From positions 33,198 to 97,197 of the IMG/VR virus record IMGVR_UViG_3300026484_000394: a stretch of DNA of 64,000 nucleotides; one strand, 5' to 3'. A program made the translations under genes and the position numbers. The notes beneath the pieces were generated by a model. That model saw only the letters and a program-made list of their open reading frames with translations, did not search any database and was not told the DNA's origin. The stretch is from a virus. The first letter of the stretch is position 1, and each line of letters opens with the position of its first letter. Of the stretch, positions 995-60,453 are shown in pieces.

Positions 995-3900
995 ATGCAA
1001 GACCCAATGGCTACACAAACTCAATCTAGCATGTATCTTAATCCTTGGCAATCAATGCTGTCTCACCCATCCATGATGGGTACTGGACCGCAAGGCTTTG
1101 TAGACCCATCTTCATTGAGCTATTATCAGAATAGTTACGGCAGCAATATGTCAAATATTGCGAGTAGTCAATATGGACAAATTCATTCAAACGCATTTTC
1201 TAATGCAGCATTACTAAATACTGGAATGGTAGCTCCAGGTGCAGGAATGAACATGTCAATGCTTAGACAGCATCAAGCAAATGCGTCAATGAATATGGGA
1301 CATAGTATGACAACTACTGGTATTGGGCTAATGGGTGGTTTTGCTGGGGCTACGATAGGTTCACGGTTTGGTGCCATTGGTGGTGTTATTGGTGGTATTG
1401 TTGGCGAAGCAGCAGGTTCCATGGTAGGGGTTTTAGCTGAAGATGGTTTAAATACTCTTTCAGGAGTTCATCGCTCCATGGGACTATTGGCTAATCCAGA
1501 CAGTCCCTACGGTGGTGGCTATGGGCATTCTACCTCTGATGCGAAAGATGTATATTCATCTATTCAAGATATGTCTATGGATGATATTACTTTTAGTCAG
1601 CAAGAAATTGGTCGAATACTTAACGAAGGCATTAAAACAGGCCAGATTTCTGGAGGCTCTACAGATCAAATAAAAACTAAACTGAAAGAACTGAAAGAGA
1701 CTGCAAAAGGACTAGCTTCAATGTTTGGGACCAATGATATCTCCGAAATAATGGATCATATGAGAAAGCTAGGTGGAAGTGGACTTATGGCGGCGGATAC
1801 AAAGCAGGTTGCAGCAGATGTTGCAGTGGCAGCAAGAGCACTCGGAGTAGATGCTCAGCAGTATGGGGTGGCTTATGAAGCAAGAAGTAAAGCTAAATCT
1901 GATATGGGGGGTCATTCTGAGCAAATGAACTTATTGTTAGATGCTAGGGTAGATGGCTTTATGTCATTGGGAGACAAGACCTCTCTTTTGTTTGGGGGGA
2001 GTAAAGATAAAAGAGCAAAAGTAAGCCAAGAACTATACCAAATAGAGGCAAACTTATTCGGCAGCTCTACCACAAGTTCAGTTTTATTGTCAGAGCAGAA
2101 CACAATGTCAAAAGAACAAATAGTTATGTCCTCTAAAGCTTTTGCAAGAGAGTCATTCTTAAATAGTGACAGAGAGAATTTGACAAAAGAAGCTTCTTCA
2201 TCAGGTCAGCCTCTTTCATCTGTTGTAACTTCTAAATTTGAAGCCCTATCGGAGAAAGAGAAGAGAAAGTTTTACGATATTGGGAACAAGAAGGTGTTGA
2301 GTAAATGGGAAGATAAGAAAGGTATGTACGAGGATGTCGTAAGCATTTCCCCCGATGTTTTCAGTATAAGGGAAACTGATGCATACAGTTCTTTTGATGC
2401 ACAAGCTTTGAAAAATGCCACTCAAGATGATTCTAAATTTGTATTCAGTAATACTGATTTGGCAAACAAGAGTATTCACTCTGTTTTCAAAGCTATTCAG
2501 TTTGGCTTTGGGAAAGAAGAGTCGATCGGTACCGGGAATATCTCTACTGATGTATACAAATTAGCAAATGCAATGACGGAAGACATGAATGGTGGGGTTG
2601 CGAAAAAGGCACAGGACATTCACGACCAGATGAAAGCAGATCGTGAGCAAAAGAGTATCTTAATGAATACAAATAGAGCTGGATTCATAGAGAAGATATA
2701 CCGAAAATACTCAAACAAGGCTACAGATTTTGTTGTAGATATTTCTACAAAAGCCATGTATGATGCTGAATTTTCTGGCACTGCAGAGAGTGACGGGATG
2801 TCTAAAAAAGAAATATTTTCCAAGTATTCAAAAGAGATCTCAGAAGGTAAATCAGGATTAGATAAGAGGTTTTCTTTAGATTCTATGCTTACTCAAGGAG
2901 GCAGAAGTTTTAGTGCACTTGCTTGGATGAAAGACAAAAGTGCTACAAAAGCAGACACTATTGTAAACTCTTCATTAGCTGCCGTAGGAGACTACCAAGT
3001 AGTAATACAGGAAAGTAAGAGTCAAGCACTAGCCCAATTGATGGCAGGAGAGTATAGCAAAGATAAACGTAATCATGGGTCAGAGACGAAAATGCAGAAT
3101 CTCTTGTCTGTCGCGTCAGGTAAAATAAGTGTTGACGAGTGGGCAAAAAATAGGGATATCCGATCTAGCCAAATTCAAGAAGATGCGAAAAGCTTTAAAA
3201 GCACTATGTCAAGGTCAACAACAAATAGACATCGTCAGCTAAAGAACGCTTTGACAGAATTTGATGATACTCATTCATCGGGATATTTTAATGTGGCTGT
3301 GATGGCAAAAGATGAACTGTTTTATTCAGGAAGAAGGGTTGCAAAAAACAAGGTAGCAAGAGTAAATAAAAAACCAAAATATACAGAAAAAGTGAGTAGT
3401 TATTTGCAATCCATTAATCAAGGCTCTGATGATGATATTAAAACTCGATTGGAGTTTGCTAAGAAACTGGAGAGTGGAGAGTTAAAAAAAAGCATTGATG
3501 AAAAAGGCTTCAGTCAAGTAGTAGATGATTTTATGTCCTCAGATGCAAACAAGAAACTTAGTGGAAAGAGACATATTGCAGACAAAATCAAGAATTCTAA
3601 TGGAGATATTAAGTCTCTATATTCGGATATGTTTAAGGATACTGCAAAAAGAGAAAAATTTAAAGCTGGTGGAGCGGACATAAAGTCTATGTTGGATTCT
3701 ATTGGGGTGAATGTTTCTGGAAATTTGTCCAAAGATGACTATTTGGATACAAAAGATATGCTGAGAGATGGAAAATTTTCCAAACAAATAACACAGCTAT
3801 TGGGAGAAGGGGTGGATGCAAAAAAAATACAGACGAATTTAGCTAATGCTATTGACGGAAATGAAAAAGCACTTGCTCTAGCAAACTCCCCTTTCGCTGG

Positions 3901-4669
3901 ACAGGTGACTCAATTGTATGCAGCAGATAAGAACAATAGTCCTCTTCAAAAAGAGGCTAATCACAGCCTGAAATTCAGAAAAGGACTTGTGGGCTTCGGA
4001 GAATTATCACAAGAGAGAAAAGAGGCTGTGTTAACTGCTGCCAAAGGGGCAGCAGCTGTCACTAAAGGTGATAACAGAATTGAACATGCTTTAAGTATTC
4101 GCAATAAACTAGATAGCTATTCTGACCTTGATGAGGAAGAAAAAATAATAGCTACCAACCTCTCTTCATATGAAGATATTGGAGATGTGGATCTAAAAAA
4201 CCTGTCTTCTTTTGCTGCAAGCACAGATATGAGCGGTCGTTTTATGAAAGAAATGAGGACAATCACAGGGCAAAGCTTAAGAACAGAGGACGACCAGGGG
4301 CATATGAGAGATGCTTTTGCTTTATTTAAAGAGGAAGAAGATGGGTCTTTTGATCTGCGAACAACTTCTGAAATGAAAGAAGTGCTTGGCGGTGACGGGA
4401 AAATGTCAAGCCATTTCAAAGACTTATGGGAAGAGAAATTTAATGAGTCTTACAATGAAAAGAATGCATCTGAAAAAAAGATAAATTCATTTCAATCTTT
4501 CATAGCTGAGAATGCTGGGATGGGAGGAAAGCTAGATGCTTTTGAAAGCTCTTTAAATGGAGGAGCTAGTATGAAGGCTACTGAAACGCTTTTAACAAGT
4601 ATTGATTCGACACTTGCTCAAATCGCTAAAAATACAGAGAATAAAACATCAATTAAAAGTACGGAATAA
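995..4669 (+). CDS. probable tail tape measure protein
   Basis: 1224 aa, Ala/Gly/Ser/Lys-rich helical-type composition, Gly-rich hydrophobic segment GIGLMGGFAGATIGSRFGAIGGVIGGIVG, virion gene context. Confidence 0.6.
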   Translation: MQDPMATQTQSSMYLNPWQSMLSHPSMMGTGPQGFVDPSSLSYYQNSYGSNMSNIASSQYGQIHSNAFSNAALLNTGMVAPGAGMNMSMLRQHQANASMNMGHSMTTTGIGLMGGFAGATIGSRFGAIGGVIGGIVGEAAGSMVGVLAEDGLNTLSGVHRSMGLLANPDSPYGGGYGHSTSDAKDVYSSIQDMSMDDITFSQQEIGRILNEGIKTGQISGGSTDQIKTKLKELKETAKGLASMFGTNDISEIMDHMRKLGGSGLMAADTKQVAADVAVAARALGVDAQQYGVAYEARSKAKSDMGGHSEQMNLLLDARVDGFMSLGDKTSLLFGGSKDKRAKVSQELYQIEANLFGSSTTSSVLLSEQNTMSKEQIVMSSKAFARESFLNSDRENLTKEASSSGQPLSSVVTSKFEALSEKEKRKFYDIGNKKVLSKWEDKKGMYEDVVSISPDVFSIRETDAYSSFDAQALKNATQDDSKFVFSNTDLANKSIHSVFKAIQFGFGKEESIGTGNISTDVYKLANAMTEDMNGGVAKKAQDIHDQMKADREQKSILMNTNRAGFIEKIYRKYSNKATDFVVDISTKAMYDAEFSGTAESDGMSKKEIFSKYSKEISEGKSGLDKRFSLDSMLTQGGRSFSALAWMKDKSATKADTIVNSSLAAVGDYQVVIQESKSQALAQLMAGEYSKDKRNHGSETKMQNLLSVASGKISVDEWAKNRDIRSSQIQEDAKSFKSTMSRSTTNRHRQLKNALTEFDDTHSSGYFNVAVMAKDELFYSGRRVAKNKVARVNKKPKYTEKVSSYLQSINQGSDDDIKTRLEFAKKLESGELKKSIDEKGFSQVVDDFMSSDANKKLSGKRHIADKIKNSNGDIKSLYSDMFKDTAKREKFKAGGADIKSMLDSIGVNVSGNLSKDDYLDTKDMLRDGKFSKQITQLLGEGVDAKKIQTNLANAIDGNEKALALANSPFAGQVTQLYAADKNNSPLQKEANHSLKFRKGLVGFGELSQERKEAVLTAAKGAAAVTKGDNRIEHALSIRNKLDSYSDLDEEEKIIATNLSSYEDIGDVDLKNLSSFAASTDMSGRFMKEMRTITGQSLRTEDDQGHMRDAFALFKEEEDGSFDLRTTSEMKEVLGGDGKMSSHFKDLWEEKFNESYNEKNASEKKINSFQSFIAENAGMGGKLDAFESSLNGGASMKATETLLTSIDSTLAQIAKNTENKTSIKSTE

Positions 4670-53630: not shown

Positions 53631-54641
53631 CTATGCTACAGCTCCGTCACCGTCACCAGCATCATTTGAAAGACCAAGACCTTTTCTAAAAGAAGTAATA
53701 ATTCTACTTTTATCCATGCTTGAAGCTTTTAATGTATGAGCATCTGTATACTCTTTAGCAGCAGCTAATGTATCAATAATGCTTGTAGCAGTTGCTTTAG
53801 CATTTTGAGCAATTGTAGTTGCATTAGAAGTAACTTTACTGATTAGACCTGGTACAAGTTCAGAATCTTCATTAGTAGTATCATTTAAGATATTTTCAGC
53901 AGATTGTACTCTGTCAGAAATAGAACTTAAAGAATCACCTTCACCACCAGTGATTTCTTCTAGTTTTTCTTCAATTCTTGACTCAGCAGCAGCAACTTTT
54001 GCTTCAGTAGAAGTAGTAAGTTCAGTTTTTGCAGCAGTAATTTTTTCATCTGTTGTATTAGCATTTGCTTGTTCAGCAGTGATTGCACGAAGTTTTTCCT
54101 GATCAACTAAATTAGCAACAGAACCTTCAATATCTTTGCTACCATTTAATTTAGTAACAGTTGCTTCAGTAGTAACTAATCTATCGTTAATAGCACCAAC
54201 AGTAGTTTTAGCAGCTTCTTTGTTATCAGCAACAGCTTTAACTAAAGCAACAATGTCAGCATTGTTAGAGTCAGTAGCATTTTTGTTGTCATTGATTTTA
54301 CCAAGTAAAGCAGCTTCAACATTAGTGGCACGAGTATTTTCATCTACGATATCTTTTTTGTTAGCAGCAATTTTGTCTAAGAAGTCAGCAACAATACCAT
54401 CTTCATTTGAAACAGCAGATTTAACATCTCTAACCATCTCAGCAAGAGACACAGAGTCATTGCTATCATCTAGTTCAGTAATTGCAGTTAATTGAGTTTG
54501 AAGTTCATTTACAGCAGTTAGTAATTCTGTTTTTGTAGAAAAACCTTTGCCCTCAACGTATTCAACTGTACTTTTACCTTGTTCTTCAACAAGATCAACT
54601 AAGATTTGTTCTAATTCTTCTGTAGTTACATTATCAGCCAT
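53631..54641 (-). CDS. coiled-coil fibre/whisker-like virion protein, probably highly expressed
   Basis: 336 aa Ala/Thr/Asn/Glu-rich heptads; DENTRATNVEAAL and DQEKLRAITAEQAN (E-x2-RA-x2-E fibre-type motif); strong A/T third-position bias. Confidence 0.6.
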   Translation of the reverse strand: MADNVTTEELEQILVDLVEEQGKSTVEYVEGKGFSTKTELLTAVNELQTQLTAITELDDSNDSVSLAEMVRDVKSAVSNEDGIVADFLDKIAANKKDIVDENTRATNVEAALLGKINDNKNATDSNNADIVALVKAVADNKEAAKTTVGAINDRLVTTEATVTKLNGSKDIEGSVANLVDQEKLRAITAEQANANTTDEKITAAKTELTTSTEAKVAAAESRIEEKLEEITGGEGDSLSSISDRVQSAENILNDTTNEDSELVPGLISKVTSNATTIAQNAKATATSIIDTLAAAKEYTDAHTLKASSMDKSRIITSFRKGLGLSNDAGDGDGAVA

Positions 54642-54794
54642 GGATAATCCTTTTAACTTAATATTTTTTGAGCTAGGCTCAGTGGAGTCCTCTTTAAAAA
54701 AAGGAACTCTGAGAAACTACTCTCTTCACCAGAAGTGAGAGTATAGTAGTTTCAAGCTGAATGATAGCTTGAAATTTACTGCTTTTTTATTATA
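54642..54794 (-). promoter_or_regulatory. promoter -10 box plus structured ~140-nt 5' leader
   Basis: TATAAT at 54789-54794 (minus); stems at 54745-54780, 54713-54753 and 54678-54713. Confidence 0.5.
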
Positions 54795-57156: not shown

Positions 57157-57177
57157 TGTATACCTTTATTTTTTCGC

Positions 57178-57198
57178 TCTGCCCCCAATGGAGGCAGA
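57178..57198 (-). terminator. GC-rich stem-loop after stop codon (no U-tract)
   Basis: Minus strand TCTGCCTCC-ATT-GGGGGCAGA. Confidence 0.45.
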
Positions 57199-57705
57199 CT
57201 AAGCTATAGTTCTAGAAATTACTTTACCATCTTCTTTGTGCTCAAAAATTACAGCATTTGGCACTGTCGTCACTGCTTCTGCTACAGCATAACTGCCATC
57301 AGGGTTTCTTTGTTGAGTTGTTACCTGAACAACAACTGAGCTTCCGCACTGCATAGCCTTAGTAGATTTCATCCAGCCTTCTTTCTCGGAAGATGCTTTT
57401 GAGATCAACTTAAAAGTATCCCCGTTGCCCCAGAATATAACATCACTAACATTTTCTCTTGTGCCATTAGAACAAGTATTCCCAAGTGTTTTCTTTGGAA
57501 TACCCATTTCTGGGTCAAGCTCCATATATCCTTTTTCGAAGGCTTCAGCAGGAGACCATGACTCATAGCCATCTTCGTAGACAACTTTATATCCATTCAC
57601 TTGTTTCTCTTCAGCACTATAGTCACGAACTAATCCTGCCTGACCTGCTTCGTGATATGGCATTGGTACTGCATTTACTGTCTTTACGCTTCTAAAAAAA
57701 CCCAT
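57199..57705 (-). CDS. two-domain small phage protein, candidate anti-defence protein
   Basis: N-domain GYKVVYEDGYESWSPAEAFEKGY; C-domain GNGDTFKLISKASSEKEGWMKSTKAM...VVQVTTQQ. Confidence 0.7.
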   Translation of the reverse strand: MGFFRSVKTVNAVPMPYHEAGQAGLVRDYSAEEKQVNGYKVVYEDGYESWSPAEAFEKGYMELDPEMGIPKKTLGNTCSNGTRENVSDVIFWGNGDTFKLISKASSEKEGWMKSTKAMQCGSSVVVQVTTQQRNPDGSYAVAEAVTTVPNAVIFEHKEDGKVISRTIA

Positions 57706-57755
57706 TACAGACCACCCTCGCCAAGACTAAAAGCTTCTCTTGTGTACCCTCTCAT
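57705..57755 (-). CDS. 16-aa mini-ORF MRGYTREAFSLGEGGL
   Basis: Start overlaps the upstream stop (TGATG) and stop overlaps the downstream start (TAATG). Confidence 0.4.
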   Translation of the reverse strand: MRGYTREAFSLGEGGL

Positions 57756-58255
57756 CATATACCTCTATTGATAACAGCAGAACATACATTGCCGTTAAGT
57801 TCATCTTTTAACAAAAAGCCCATTAGAGGCCAGATTTTCTCTCTAGCAGTATCTTTAGCTATTCTCTCACCTATCATTTTGTCATAGTTCTCCGGAGAAG
57901 CACAAGCACTTTCACCTGTAACGGTAAACCCATTCACTAAAGTTAGCACACACACAGTCAGAACATCAGTAAGCTTGTGATACTCTTCTTTTGCAATAAC
58001 TGCATCAATCTTTCCTGGGTTCAACCGTGGAGCATTTAAGCATTTTTCTTGGATCAGTTCCTCTGTTGTTATTGCACCTGTTGCCTCTTGTGTACACTTC
58101 GCACAGTGAACCGGAGTTTCCATCATATCCATTAGGTCTTGTTTCGACTTCTTTACACTCTCCGGCATCTCTAATTCCTCTGCCTTACAGTGTGCCTCTA
58201 ATTCTACTAACTTATCTATCACTTCTTTGATTGCACGTGAAGTTTTCTTATTCAT
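57755..58255 (-). CDS. N4 Gp49/Sf6 gp66 family protein (Acb4-like sponge candidate) with N-terminal extension
   Basis: APRLNPGKIDAVI...LTVCVLTLVNGFTVTGESACASPENYDKMIGERIA...KIWPLMGFLLK. Confidence 0.85.
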   Translation of the reverse strand: MNKKTSRAIKEVIDKLVELEAHCKAEELEMPESVKKSKQDLMDMMETPVHCAKCTQEATGAITTEELIQEKCLNAPRLNPGKIDAVIAKEEYHKLTDVLTVCVLTLVNGFTVTGESACASPENYDKMIGERIAKDTAREKIWPLMGFLLKDELNGNVCSAVINRGI

Positions 58256-58285
58256 GTCTATCCTTCTGTTTTTTTTTAAGTGGTC

Positions 58286-58291
58286 ATTATA
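58286..58291 (-). promoter_or_regulatory. -10 box ahead of the Gp49-family gene
   Basis: gtTATAAT on the minus strand about 30 nt before an ATG with AAGGA RBS. Confidence 0.45.
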
Positions 58292-58297
58292 ACTATT

Positions 58298-58747
58298 TTA
58301 TTCTTTCAACTTGATTACAAATTTTTTGTCTATTACTGCAAAAGCAGCTTGGACATCTTCTATGTTTCTCACTATAAAGTAATGAGCTCCAACCTTTTTC
58401 ATTTTAGCTTCCATGCGAATCTGCTCTTTTGTCTGTTTGCCATTATGCTTTTTTACTTCTAGCCCCATATAGATTCCCCTATATAGAACTGTTATATCTG
58501 GCAGCCCTGGCTCACTTGTACATTTGTAATGGCCCACTGCTCTTTTGACTGATGCCATAATAGACGATTTTTTAATTGGAGATAGTCCTAGTTTGCTGAT
58601 TACTCCAGCAACTGCTCTAACTGCTACAGCAGTAAAAGAGCCCGAGTTTTGTCTCCAAAATACAATGTTTCGCCTGTGTGCAAGATATTGTAGTATTTTT
58701 GCTTGTATTTCTTTTTCGAGTGGTGGACCCTTAAGACTCGCTGCCAT
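58298..58747 (-). CDS. VRR-NUC (PD-(D/E)xK) nuclease / resolvase-like
   Basis: EKEIQAKILQYL, FWRQNSG, GLPDI...GLEVKKHNGKQTKEQ. Confidence 0.85.
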   Translation of the reverse strand: MAASLKGPPLEKEIQAKILQYLAHRRNIVFWRQNSGSFTAVAVRAVAGVISKLGLSPIKKSSIMASVKRAVGHYKCTSEPGLPDITVLYRGIYMGLEVKKHNGKQTKEQIRMEAKMKKVGAHYFIVRNIEDVQAAFAVIDKKFVIKLKE

Positions 58748-58748
58748 A

Positions 58749-59435
58749 TTAACCCCTTTGAATATGTATTTTTTTTGTTTCTGGATTTAGAAACCCGTGT
58801 GTTTTTCTAGCAATGTAATTAGCCGCCGTAGGAAGTGCTCCAAGACTAAGATATGAAGTCTCAGAACCCAAAATAACTGGAAGTCCTGCTAAGACAGCCT
58901 TTCGACCTCCAAAGCGATGAAGAGTCTGAAGGGCTTTTGCATTTGCCCTAGTTTCTTCTATGATAACAGGAGCTGTAATTCCAGCAGACACAAGCTTGTG
59001 GGTTTTTGACAACTCTTTGCCCTCTGCTCCAAGCTTGGCTGCATAGACGGTATCTCCAAGTGTCCCGAGAAGACCTCCACTATAAGCAACTAAGCCTGCC
59101 TTGTGTTTCAACATTGGACTTGAAGCATGTCCCAATTCGTGAGCAACTATCGAAGCTTGTCGAAATCTACCATCCGGGCCAACACGGATAATGTCATGTT
59201 CTTTGCCCGAAGCAAGTCTAGATTCGTATGCCGGCATAGAGTGTTCTTCAAATATTATCTTTTGTTTTGCTCCGGATAGTTCTTTTAATCGAGACAGTTC
59301 TCCGTCTGACATAATCTCTTCAGGACTTGACATTATCACATGAGCAGCCCCACCTCCAATTATCTGTTGGCCAACCATCGAACCCACAAGGCCAGCACCC
59401 ATGGCTCCTCCACTAAATTCGTGTTTCTCTTTCAT
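58749..59435 (-). CDS. putative membrane-associated zinc metallopeptidase
   Basis: VAHELGHA (HExxH) plus downstream EETRAN; Gly/Ala-rich hydrophobic segments. Confidence 0.7.
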   Translation of the reverse strand: MKEKHEFSGGAMGAGLVGSMVGQQIIGGGAAHVIMSSPEEIMSDGELSRLKELSGAKQKIIFEEHSMPAYESRLASGKEHDIIRVGPDGRFRQASIVAHELGHASSPMLKHKAGLVAYSGGLLGTLGDTVYAAKLGAEGKELSKTHKLVSAGITAPVIIEETRANAKALQTLHRFGGRKAVLAGLPVILGSETSYLSLGALPTAANYIARKTHGFLNPETKKIHIQRG

Positions 59436-59460: not shown

Positions 59461-60453
59461 TTAATTTTCACTCTTCTTAGGCAAAACTTCCGTTAAAGCC
59501 TTTTTAATCTCTTTTGCAATAGCAGTGATTACCGGAACAGTTACTGAATTGCCTATCTGTTTATACAAATGAGAGTTAGCTAAATCTTCACTCAATATAA
59601 AAGTATCGTCATATCCTTGAAATCTTGCACATTCTCTCGGTGTAAGTTTTCGTATATCTTTCTTATCAATAATCAGAGGCACATTATGACCACCTGTACC
59701 CATATTTGCAGTTAAAGTAGGGCAAAGCTTACTTTTATTTTCTCTAACATATTTTCTTCTCCATTGATATACTGTGTCATTATTTTTCATTTCATCTTTT
59801 AACTGAGTATAATATCTGCTATTTGTATAATAGAATCTCTCGTCAGCTTCGTCATCAATTAGATCGTTAATTGTTTTTGTTAGTTTTTTTGGTTTTGGAA
59901 AATCAAATCTATCACATACTTTCTTATCTTTGAAACCTACGATATAGATTCTCTCTCTGTTTTGTGGCACATTTGAATACTCAGCAGTATTTAATACTTT
60001 ATAATTCAAATAATAACCACGACTTTCAAGCTCATCTTTGATAATCTCAAATGTTCTGCCCTTGTCGTGACCAATTAGATTTTTCACATTTTCCAAAAAT
60101 AGTATTTCAGGTTCTAAATCATCAATAAATCTTAATATCTCAAAGAATACATGACCTCTATCATCATTGAAACCTTTTCTATATCCTGCTACAGAAAATG
60201 CTTGACAAGGGAAGCCACCAGTTAAAATATTTATCTTACCGACTTCATCTGTTCGCAAGTCTTTTAAATCTTTTTCATATAATTTATGCTTGTGGTTTTT
60301 TCTATATGTGATAGCTGCTTTACTATCTATTTCATTTGCCCATGATATACTAAACCCTGCTTTTTTAAAACCTAACTCAATGCCGCCAATCCCTGCGAAT
60401 AACCCACCAATTTTGTAGTCTTTAGCTGTTATTTTTTTCATAGGAGCAGTCAT
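59461..60453 (-). CDS. orphan DNA (cytosine-5) methyltransferase
   Basis: Motifs FAGIGG, GGFPCQAFS, LENVKN, PQNRERIY, RKLTPRECAR, QIGNSV; TRD CPTLTANMGTGGHNVP. Confidence 0.95.
   Translation of the reverse strand: MTAPMKKITAKDYKIGGLFAGIGGIELGFKKAGFSISWANEIDSKAAITYRKNHKHKLYEKDLKDLRTDEVGKINILTGGFPCQAFSVAGYRKGFNDDRGHVFFEILRFIDDLEPEILFLENVKNLIGHDKGRTFEIIKDELESRGYYLNYKVLNTAEYSNVPQNRERIYIVGFKDKKVCDRFDFPKPKKLTKTINDLIDDEADERFYYTNSRYYTQLKDEMKNNDTVYQWRRKYVRENKSKLCPTLTANMGTGGHNVPLIIDKKDIRKLTPRECARFQGYDDTFILSEDLANSHLYKQIGNSVTVPVITAIAKEIKKALTEVLPKKSEN

Follow-up and report, generated by a model that had tools for sequence, protein, structure and literature searches.

What is encoded by two small adjacent genes that lie at positions 57199-58291 of a 64,000-nucleotide (nt) stretch of viral DNA (hereafter the window), and are they directed against host defences that signal through nucleotides? 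The window comprises bases 33198-97197 of the source, an uncultured phage, IMG/VR record IMGVR_UViG_3300026484_000394, a single record of 97,197 bp with a G+C content of 37%. The genes, here called gene A and gene B, are two co-oriented open reading frames (ORFs) on the minus strand, 49 nt apart. Drawing on analogy with characterized relatives, we consider it likely that they constitute a two-gene counter-defence cassette, in which an Acb4 sponge is accompanied by a Lockin sponge that carries an autonomous N-terminal module, referred to below as the N-domain. The parts of the two genes are as follows.

57755-58255, minus strand: gene A, an ORF of 166 amino acids (aa), with an orphan N-terminal extension and an Acb4-family (PF13876) domain.
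58073-58255, minus strand: helical extension of gene A, residues 1-61, with H22-C23 and H50-C51-A-K-C54 (HCAKC).
57800-58018, minus strand: core of the Acb4/Gp49 domain of gene A, residues 80-152 (PF13876; match to PDB entry 9e4w; E = 6e-49 with our own Acb4 hidden Markov model).
57199-57705, minus strand: gene B, an ORF of 168 aa, with a Dec-like small beta-barrel N-domain and a Lockin domain.
57514-57705, minus strand: N-domain of gene B, residues 1-64, or the GYKVVYEDGYESWSP domain (phrog_9467/872/11049; predicted local distance difference test score, pLDDT, of about 95 in the full-length model).
57202-57498, minus strand: Lockin domain of gene B, residues 70-168 (match to PDB entry 9p8l, fold and contact residues).

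Sequence, predicted fold and ligand-contacting residues all bear on the assignment of the C-terminal part of gene B. In a phmmer search of the PDB, its residues 70-152 matched residues 3-85 of LockinA (9p8l_A) with E = 8.9e-27, in an ungapped alignment of 83 residues at about 65% identity. The AlphaFold2 model of gene B, which has a mean pLDDT of 80.8 and a low-confidence linker between the two domains, matched the same structure, a curved fold dominated by beta-sheet, in Foldseek with probability 1.00 (E = 1.7e-07; template-modelling score by target 0.69-0.77) and in VIA-align with Z = 8.8 (root-mean-square deviation 2.3 Å over 81 residues), the next match having a Z of 5.8. The Lockin family was published in July 2025 together with a crystal structure containing 3'-cyclic ADP-ribose (3'cADPR), which LockinA contacts through K35, K45, S46, T47, K48 and Q59 (Tal et al., bioRxiv 10.1101/2025.07.12.664507). 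Once a one-residue offset of the PDB chain is allowed for, all six residues are identical in gene B (K103, K113, S114, T115, K116 and Q127); among them are the counterparts of K45 and K48, mutation of either of which abolishes or reduces the anti-defence activity of LockinA (10.1101/2025.07.12.664507). Judged by sequence and model, the C-terminal domain of gene B is a member of the verified Lockin family of anti-Thoeris sponges. Published Lockins are stand-alone proteins of about 100 aa, whereas in gene B the Lockin domain is preceded by the 64-residue Dec-like N-domain.

A preliminary description of this DNA had presented gene B as an uncharacterised two-domain partner of gene A. The two motifs on which that description was based are both present in the 168-aa protein, GYKVVYEDGYESWSP at residues 38-52 and KASSEKEGWMKSTKAM...VVQVTTQQ at residues 103-132 within the Lockin domain, but the C-terminal half can no longer be called uncharacterised. 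By the same token, the proposal that both domains bind immune signalling nucleotides gains ground for the C-terminal domain, while the N-terminal one stays a candidate. In the Pfam search for PF11195 (Tad2, DUF2829) suggested at the time, gene B has no match to any family at E ≤ 1, and hence no PF11195 domain, the N-domain being a fusion partner of Tad2 and not Tad2 itself. The Pfam label of Lockin, PF26760, was taken from precomputed tables only.

Gene A had been recognized beforehand as a Gp49/Sf6-gp66 gene, and the Gp49 family had been equated with Acb4; both statements hold. Residues 80-152 match PF13876 (Phage_gp49_66) with E = 3.6e-29 and 101.5 bits, the Pfam gathering cut-off being 27, and gene A matches phrog_322 with E = 3.5e-43. 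PF13876 is the Acb4 family of cyclic-dinucleotide sponges directed against the cyclic-oligonucleotide-based antiphage signalling system (CBASS) (Chang et al., 10.1101/2024.12.30.630793). Acb4 of phage SPO1 is a tetramer that sequesters 3'3'-cyclic GMP-AMP (3'3'-cGAMP) and related CBASS signals, and 3'3'-cGAMP was bound by all eight homologues tested, divergent ones included (10.1101/2024.12.30.630793). Gene A matches SPO1 Acb4 (9e4w_A) with E = 0.004 over 70 aligned residues at about 25% identity. With many environmental Acb4 proteins that stand alone and are about 100 aa long, the identity is 70-77%.

The extra N-terminus with a CAKC motif, also noticed earlier on the Gp49 protein, corresponds to the extension of about 61 residues that contains H50-C51-A-K-C54. 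Since the frame upstream of gene A is open and the best ribosome-binding site is found at the first ATG, we take this extension as real. Of 6273 homologues, the 120 that score best each cover at most 61% of the query, and in 591 phage records no match to gene A begins before residue 62. Against Pfam at E ≤ 10 the extension gave just a meaningless match to Pox_E10, and the protein atlas returned generic helical look-alikes and nothing specific; a hidden Sequestin (PF21825) or a member of another family thus finds no support in either search. The orphan helical HCxxC extension sets gene A apart from SPO1 Acb4 and is absent from the listed homologues.

Sequences and models show the families to which the proteins belong, their fold, the contact residues that are kept and the arrangement of the domains; from the published homologues we infer how the two proteins might act, with regard to oligomeric state, ligands, activity in the host and the role of the N-domain. 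Gene A would form an Acb4-type tetramer sequestering CBASS cyclic dinucleotides such as 3'3'-cGAMP, as SPO1 Acb4 and the eight homologues do. Lockin proteins are known to assemble into hexamers, which hold 3'cADPR in six inter-protomer pockets, and to cancel type I and/or type II Thoeris (10.1101/2025.07.12.664507). Following LockinA, gene B would likewise form a hexamer with six inter-subunit pockets that lock 3'cADPR and possibly histidine-ADP-ribose (His-ADPR). With the signals of the Thoeris TIR (Toll/interleukin-1 receptor) proteins locked in this way, ThsA-type effectors would stay silent. The six N-domains would be placed on the periphery of the hexamer, where each might serve as an autonomous counter-defence module that recognizes one more conserved target, be it a protein of the host or a small molecule, and might so widen the neutralizing range of the fusion protein.

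Several observations weigh against parts of this scheme. Three of the nine SPO1 contacts to 3'3'-cGAMP that could be mapped are kept in gene A, all of them aromatic or hydrophobic pocket positions (F48 to F110, F62 to Y124 and I66 to I128), whereas six are changed (K36 to V98, E49 to T111, V56 to C118, Y57 to A119, N63 to D125 and T70 to I132). The replaced residues include K36 and E49, which read the base, and the phosphate contacts Y57 and T70. With so few contact positions kept, the ligand preference of gene A is not readable from its sequence. As for gene B, Lockins typically stand alone and have a length of about 100 aa, as at 57 of the 62 related viral (IMG/VR) loci, and the compatibility of an N-terminal fusion with the hexamer is inferred from the natural recurrence of the fusion alone. 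The N-domain itself is small (about 60 residues) and mildly acidic and has a single invariant lysine, which makes it unlike the usual phosphate-binding pocket. Net charge is nonetheless uninformative for nucleotide binding, as Acb4 proteins are also acidic overall.

What, then, is the N-domain? It has no Pfam family, and no solved structure contains it by sequence. Among 1.84 billion cluster representatives, its profile identified 7036 proteins at E ≤ 1e-3, of which 3287 reach E ≤ 1e-10. K8, S49, P52 and F56 are invariant, and Y4, A12, G38, Y39, V41, Y43, D45, G46, Y47, S51 and Y60 are conserved in at least 90% of the sequences. We inspected domain architectures in the best 150 of the 7036 representatives. 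The N-domain is located at the N-terminus in 115 of them and at the C-terminus in 7; it stands essentially alone in 27, and 6 have tandem copies. The partners include Tad2 in 59 representatives (an inflated count, as some Tad2 columns are contained in the N-domain profile), Sequestin (PF21825) in four, Lockin in three, the Acb2/Tad1 hairpin (PF24729) in two and Acb4 in one. By these sequence matches, Lockin is the fifth sponge family with which the N-domain is combined.

The same range of architectures is seen in individual phages. The N-domain is joined to Tad2 in gp72 of Bacteroides phage BS-TP2, to Sequestin in gp52 of Klebsiella phage LASTA and to Acb2/Tad1 in gp016 of Caulobacter phage Jess A, and it is found alone in gp72 of Erwinia phage MIF8 and in gp70 of E. 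coli phage Bas106. In KP06_gp41 of crAssphage (Carjivirus communis) the same domain (45-46% identity over residues 1-68) is joined to PF13876/Acb4. The earlier statement that the GY..DGYESWSP domain is fused to Gp49 and DUF2829 (Tad2) is thus borne out by crAssphage gp41 and BS-TP2 gp72. There is an instructive difference between the two arrangements: in crAssphage the N-domain is carried by Acb4, whereas in the phage of the window it is carried by Lockin, and Acb4 is a separate gene with a different N-terminal extension. Relatives of the N-domain model in the BFVD, which appear to contain the domain at 26-35% identity, include viral proteins annotated as MazG pyrophosphatase (Vibrio phage KF6, 394 aa), as RyR-domain protein (Yersinia phage TG1) and as NodB-like, so that the partners of the N-domain may extend beyond sponges.

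A first structural handle on the N-domain, and a candidate evolutionary origin for it, is provided by Dec of phage L (PDB 6E3C). In hmmsearch, a profile of stand-alone N-domain members matches one solved protein, the Dec oligonucleotide/oligosaccharide-binding (OB) fold, with E = 0.003 over Dec residues 24-101. The hhalign probability of this relationship is 91.6% over 73 columns, and the sequence of Dec reaches 20.8 bits, whereas 2000 shuffled versions of it stay at or below 9.4 bits; in the protein atlas the match is to a cluster named after Dec, with a score of 0.90. Dec residues 20-92, which include the whole OB-fold and helix alpha2, align with the N-domain profile, and the predicted strands and terminal helix of the N-domain coincide with beta4, beta5 and alpha2 of Dec. 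These profile comparisons identify the N-domain as a distant homologue of the Dec OB-fold. The two share scaffold positions (GGY, G46, F56 and Y60), whereas the N-domain invariants K8 and, in the YEDGYESWSP motif, D45, Y47, S49, W50, S51 and P52 are absent from Dec. We conclude that the N-domain is a small beta-barrel of the Dec type whose surface has become a different one and is strongly constrained. Using a model of the N-domain alone (pLDDT 78), Foldseek found nothing in the PDB at E ≤ 0.001, and VIA-align gave just weak SH3/Tudor-like matches with Z ≤ 5.5, within the stated noise range of the tool. With Z-scores in that range, kinship with SH3/Tudor-like folds or with DUF1653 (3be3, Z = 4.8) is not claimed.

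The relationship to Dec raises the question of whether the N-domain might bind the capsid lattice, gene B then being associated with the virion or procapsid. The profile similarity does span the whole N-domain, and in phage BS-TP2 the gene combining the N-domain with Tad2 is located among head and tail genes. Gene B, however, lies within a minus-strand block of non-structural genes, outside the head-gene cluster and about 16 kb from the terminase, which is on the opposite strand. It also lacks the C-terminal trimeric beta-helix spike of Dec, in place of which there is the Lockin domain. Capsid-binding site 1 of Dec is formed by K30 with Y49 (PMC6449081), and the segment of residues 26-38 that bears K30, the main capsid-binding residue, is deleted in the short form represented by gene B, where the beta1-beta3 region is shortened. 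Moreover, the N-domain motif, whose invariants are not common to Dec, is conserved across phages with unrelated capsids. A structural role in the virion is consequently very improbable.

We are left with the question of what the N-domain contributes to gene B. Our preferred answer, which we put forward tentatively and at somewhat less than even chances, is that the N-domain (GY..YEDGYESWSP) represents a new widespread family of phage counter-defence proteins, able to neutralize an immune signal or protein by itself, so that gene B would be bifunctional. An autonomous role is favoured by three properties taken together: the domain is found by itself, its conservation among phages that infect unrelated hosts is extreme, and it is combined with five sponge families. 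Sequestin was found by the same guilt-by-fusion reasoning in a published fusion analysis. A more specific variant, possible though on the improbable side, is that the N-domain is a third nucleotide sponge, specific for a different messenger such as a cyclic oligoadenylate, a cyclic mononucleotide or another ADP-ribose derivative, which would give gene B two specificities. Apart from the Sequestin precedent and the occurrence of the domain as fusions, tandem copies and stand-alone genes, this variant is consistent with the near-invariance of Y39, Y43, D45, Y47, S49, W50, S51, P52, F56, Y60 and K8 across phages of unrelated hosts, which points to a universally conserved ligand. OB-folds often bind nucleotides or oligonucleotides, and one of the BFVD relatives is annotated as a MazG pyrophosphatase fusion. 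Nonetheless, a domain of about 60 residues with an acidic motif and one invariant basic residue is a poor match for a sponge, and the N-domain shows no detectable similarity to any known one. The pockets of known sponges are formed between subunits, so that an oligomerizing N-domain has to be assumed here; the predicted complex of two N-domain copies scored 0.19 (the mark being 0.42), which speaks neither for nor against self-association.

It is also conceivable, if unlikely, that the N-domain has no ligand of its own and is an accessory module of sponges, such as a handle for solubility, assembly or regulation, or a protein-binding adaptor that recruits sponges to a partner of host or phage origin. 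Its N-terminal position in most representatives, ahead of very different partners, would fit such a role, and so would the closest relative of gene B, in which a Lockin module of about 91% identity is preceded by a very divergent N-domain, as if the parts were exchangeable. The weak SH3/Tudor-like matches of the N-domain model (the RID of Mfd, Z = 5.5; CarD, Z = 5.0; the Tudor domains of UvrD/PcrA, Z = 4.2-4.4) might be taken as pointing to an adaptor, but these values fall within the noise range given above. A mere handle would not be expected to stand alone, as it does in 27 of the 150 representatives and as a separate gene in phages MIF8 and Bas106, and the extreme conservation of the domain argues for a specific target.

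If the N-domain does act as an inhibitor by itself, phages would possess one more common means of putting signalling immunity out of action. Few small phage domains are more conserved than this one, which is tied to five sponge families of unrelated kinds and also exists by itself. The stand-alone N-domain genes, present in N4-like, crAss-like and many other phages, would in that case be anti-defence genes that have escaped recognition, and genes of model phages, for example crAssphage gp41, would have to be re-annotated.

Whether genes A and B make up one functional unit is a separate question, for which the following signals need to be considered.

58286-58291, minus strand: TATAAT box, a possible -10 element (perfect match), 30 nt upstream of the gene A ATG.
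58261-58266, minus strand: ribosome-binding site GAAGGA of gene A, read from the sequence, six nt before the ATG.
57178-57198, minus strand: 9-bp hairpin immediately after the gene B stop codon (free energy -16.9 kcal/mol, z = -2.56).

The preliminary description had credited the pair with its own -10 box and closing hairpin. The TATAAT box is indeed there, and with 48 copies in 128 kb (both strands) the chance of finding one in the 42-nt gap is about 1-2%. However, no -35 element accompanies it, and a sigma-70 scan called no promoter at this site. The same promoter and terminator scan called nothing at the borders of the cassette, its sole terminator-like site being inside gene A. The hairpin was not called as a terminator either and is not a canonical intrinsic one, as an A-run and the ribosome-binding site of the next gene come after it and not a U-tract. 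Since it has no U-tract and similar leaders precede other genes, we regard the hairpin not as a proven terminator but as a leader or processing element between genes. An arrangement of hairpin, A-run (AAAAAA[AT]A) and ribosome-binding site is repeated on the minus strand at 54642-54700, 57157-57198 and 58748-58800, in front of several genes, for example those that start at 54641 and 58747. Gene B has a good ribosome-binding site as well, GAGGGTGG ahead of its start. A self-contained operon of genes A and B is thus unproven, and the claim of one is weak.

The rival to a functional unit, namely that genes A and B are independent neighbouring morons transcribed with the surrounding genes, has to be taken seriously, although we rate it as somewhat less than evenly probable. 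Besides the signals just described, the distribution of the genes speaks for it: an Acb4 gene adjoins Lockin at just one of the 62 related Lockin loci, and no neighbour is common to these loci. The notion of a self-contained unit of Acb4 and its partner, also part of the preliminary description, is not supported in this respect, as the pairing is not conserved. On the other hand, both genes are on the same strand with no terminator in the 49-nt gap between them, the TATAAT box is upstream of gene A, and anti-signalling genes are documented to cluster in hot spots. The adjacency of Acb4 and Lockin is also seen again at the one locus mentioned (L021, positions 3565-4327). There a stand-alone Lockin gene comes 128 nt after an Acb4 gene that likewise stands alone and has 67% identity to the domain of gene A; the gene order is that of the window, but the extra domains are absent.

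The fusion of the N-domain and Lockin seen in gene B is not confined to the window. About a dozen clusters in a large protein collection span gene B from end to end, although such fusions are rare among the 62 IMG/VR Lockin loci. The closest relative of gene B is found at L003 (positions 3815-4387; IMGVR_UViG_3300033146_001875). Its Lockin module, linker included, is about 91% identical to that of gene B, whereas the domain ahead of it has diverged very strongly (YRGW...GDHVSWIPKPVFEKE), the junction being near the SW.P..FEK motif. A Lockin module this similar next to a divergent N-domain suggests that the modules have been exchanged by recombination. Four more loci (L017, L018, L019 and L048) have Lockin fused to other N-terminal modules. 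In L017-19 this is a domain of about 90 aa ending in W-L-V-A-K-x-F-F-E-x-N-Y, which gives the impression of being a further, distant form of the N-domain, and L048 encodes a 352-aa protein of three modules. In a metagenomic protein of 291 aa (P0004), a thioredoxin-like region precedes the N-domain and Lockin; the linkage may be real, or the gene call may have run through from one gene into the next. The thioredoxin genes gp37 and gp39 of crAssphage are located just upstream of gp41. Lockin-like ORFs (54-55% identity, residues 81-164) were also detected by tblastn in two Bacillus phages, Flasso (MZ357961.1) and phBC6A51 (NC_004820.1), both complete genomes of an INPHARED-derived collection; the Lockin preprint reports that none were found in INPHARED (10.1101/2025.07.12.664507).

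With both sponge families already published, Acb4 in 2024 and Lockin in 2025, what the cassette adds is mainly a phage lineage and an architecture. Fusions and hot spots of anti-signalling genes have been described, among them Acb4-Tad2 of Pasteurella phage Pm86, Sequestin-Acb4 of phage YH6 and Acb4-Sequestin (gp59) of Pseudomonas phage Ab09, which follow the same strategy of countering both CBASS and Thoeris signals from one locus or with one polypeptide. In the window, by contrast, the two known sponges are separate adjacent genes, and the domain fused to Lockin is not a known sponge. Our literature searches found no description of the N-domain, of its fusion to Lockin or of its relation to Dec; those on DUF1653 and on the N-terminal domain of DUF2829/Tad2 returned nothing on the N-domain, and papers on multi-domain sponge fusions were not found to describe a Lockin fusion. 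As the N-domain has no Pfam family, the published Pfam-based search for sponge partners may have missed it.

It remains to place the cassette within the genome. In the whole genome, the N-domain, Lockin and Acb4 are each present exactly once. The best matches of the large terminase are to Salmonella phage Arash and some Vibrio phages at merely 26-29% identity, and since these, and not crAss-like phages, are its nearest relatives, an affiliation with the crAss-like phages was rejected. A search of a phage collection for near-identical DNA gave no match. Two genes upstream of the cassette have recognizable families.

58298-58747, minus strand: 149-aa endonuclease/Holliday-junction-resolvase-like (nuclease-like) gene (phrog_93, phrog_5702), adjoining the cassette upstream.
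59461-60453, minus strand: C5 DNA methyltransferase (phrog_116, E = 9e-95) with a GGFPCQAFS motif.

Together with the cassette, the methyltransferase and the nuclease-like gene look like an anti-restriction and counter-defence island. Related loci do not share the genes that surround the cassette, a pattern to be expected of counter-defence genes that are mobile. The methyltransferase gene and the nuclease-like gene are separated by one for a 228-aa protein (58749-59435, minus strand), which matches no Pfam or PHROG family; it has an HExxH-type motif, HELGH, and could be a small metallopeptidase-like counter-defence candidate.

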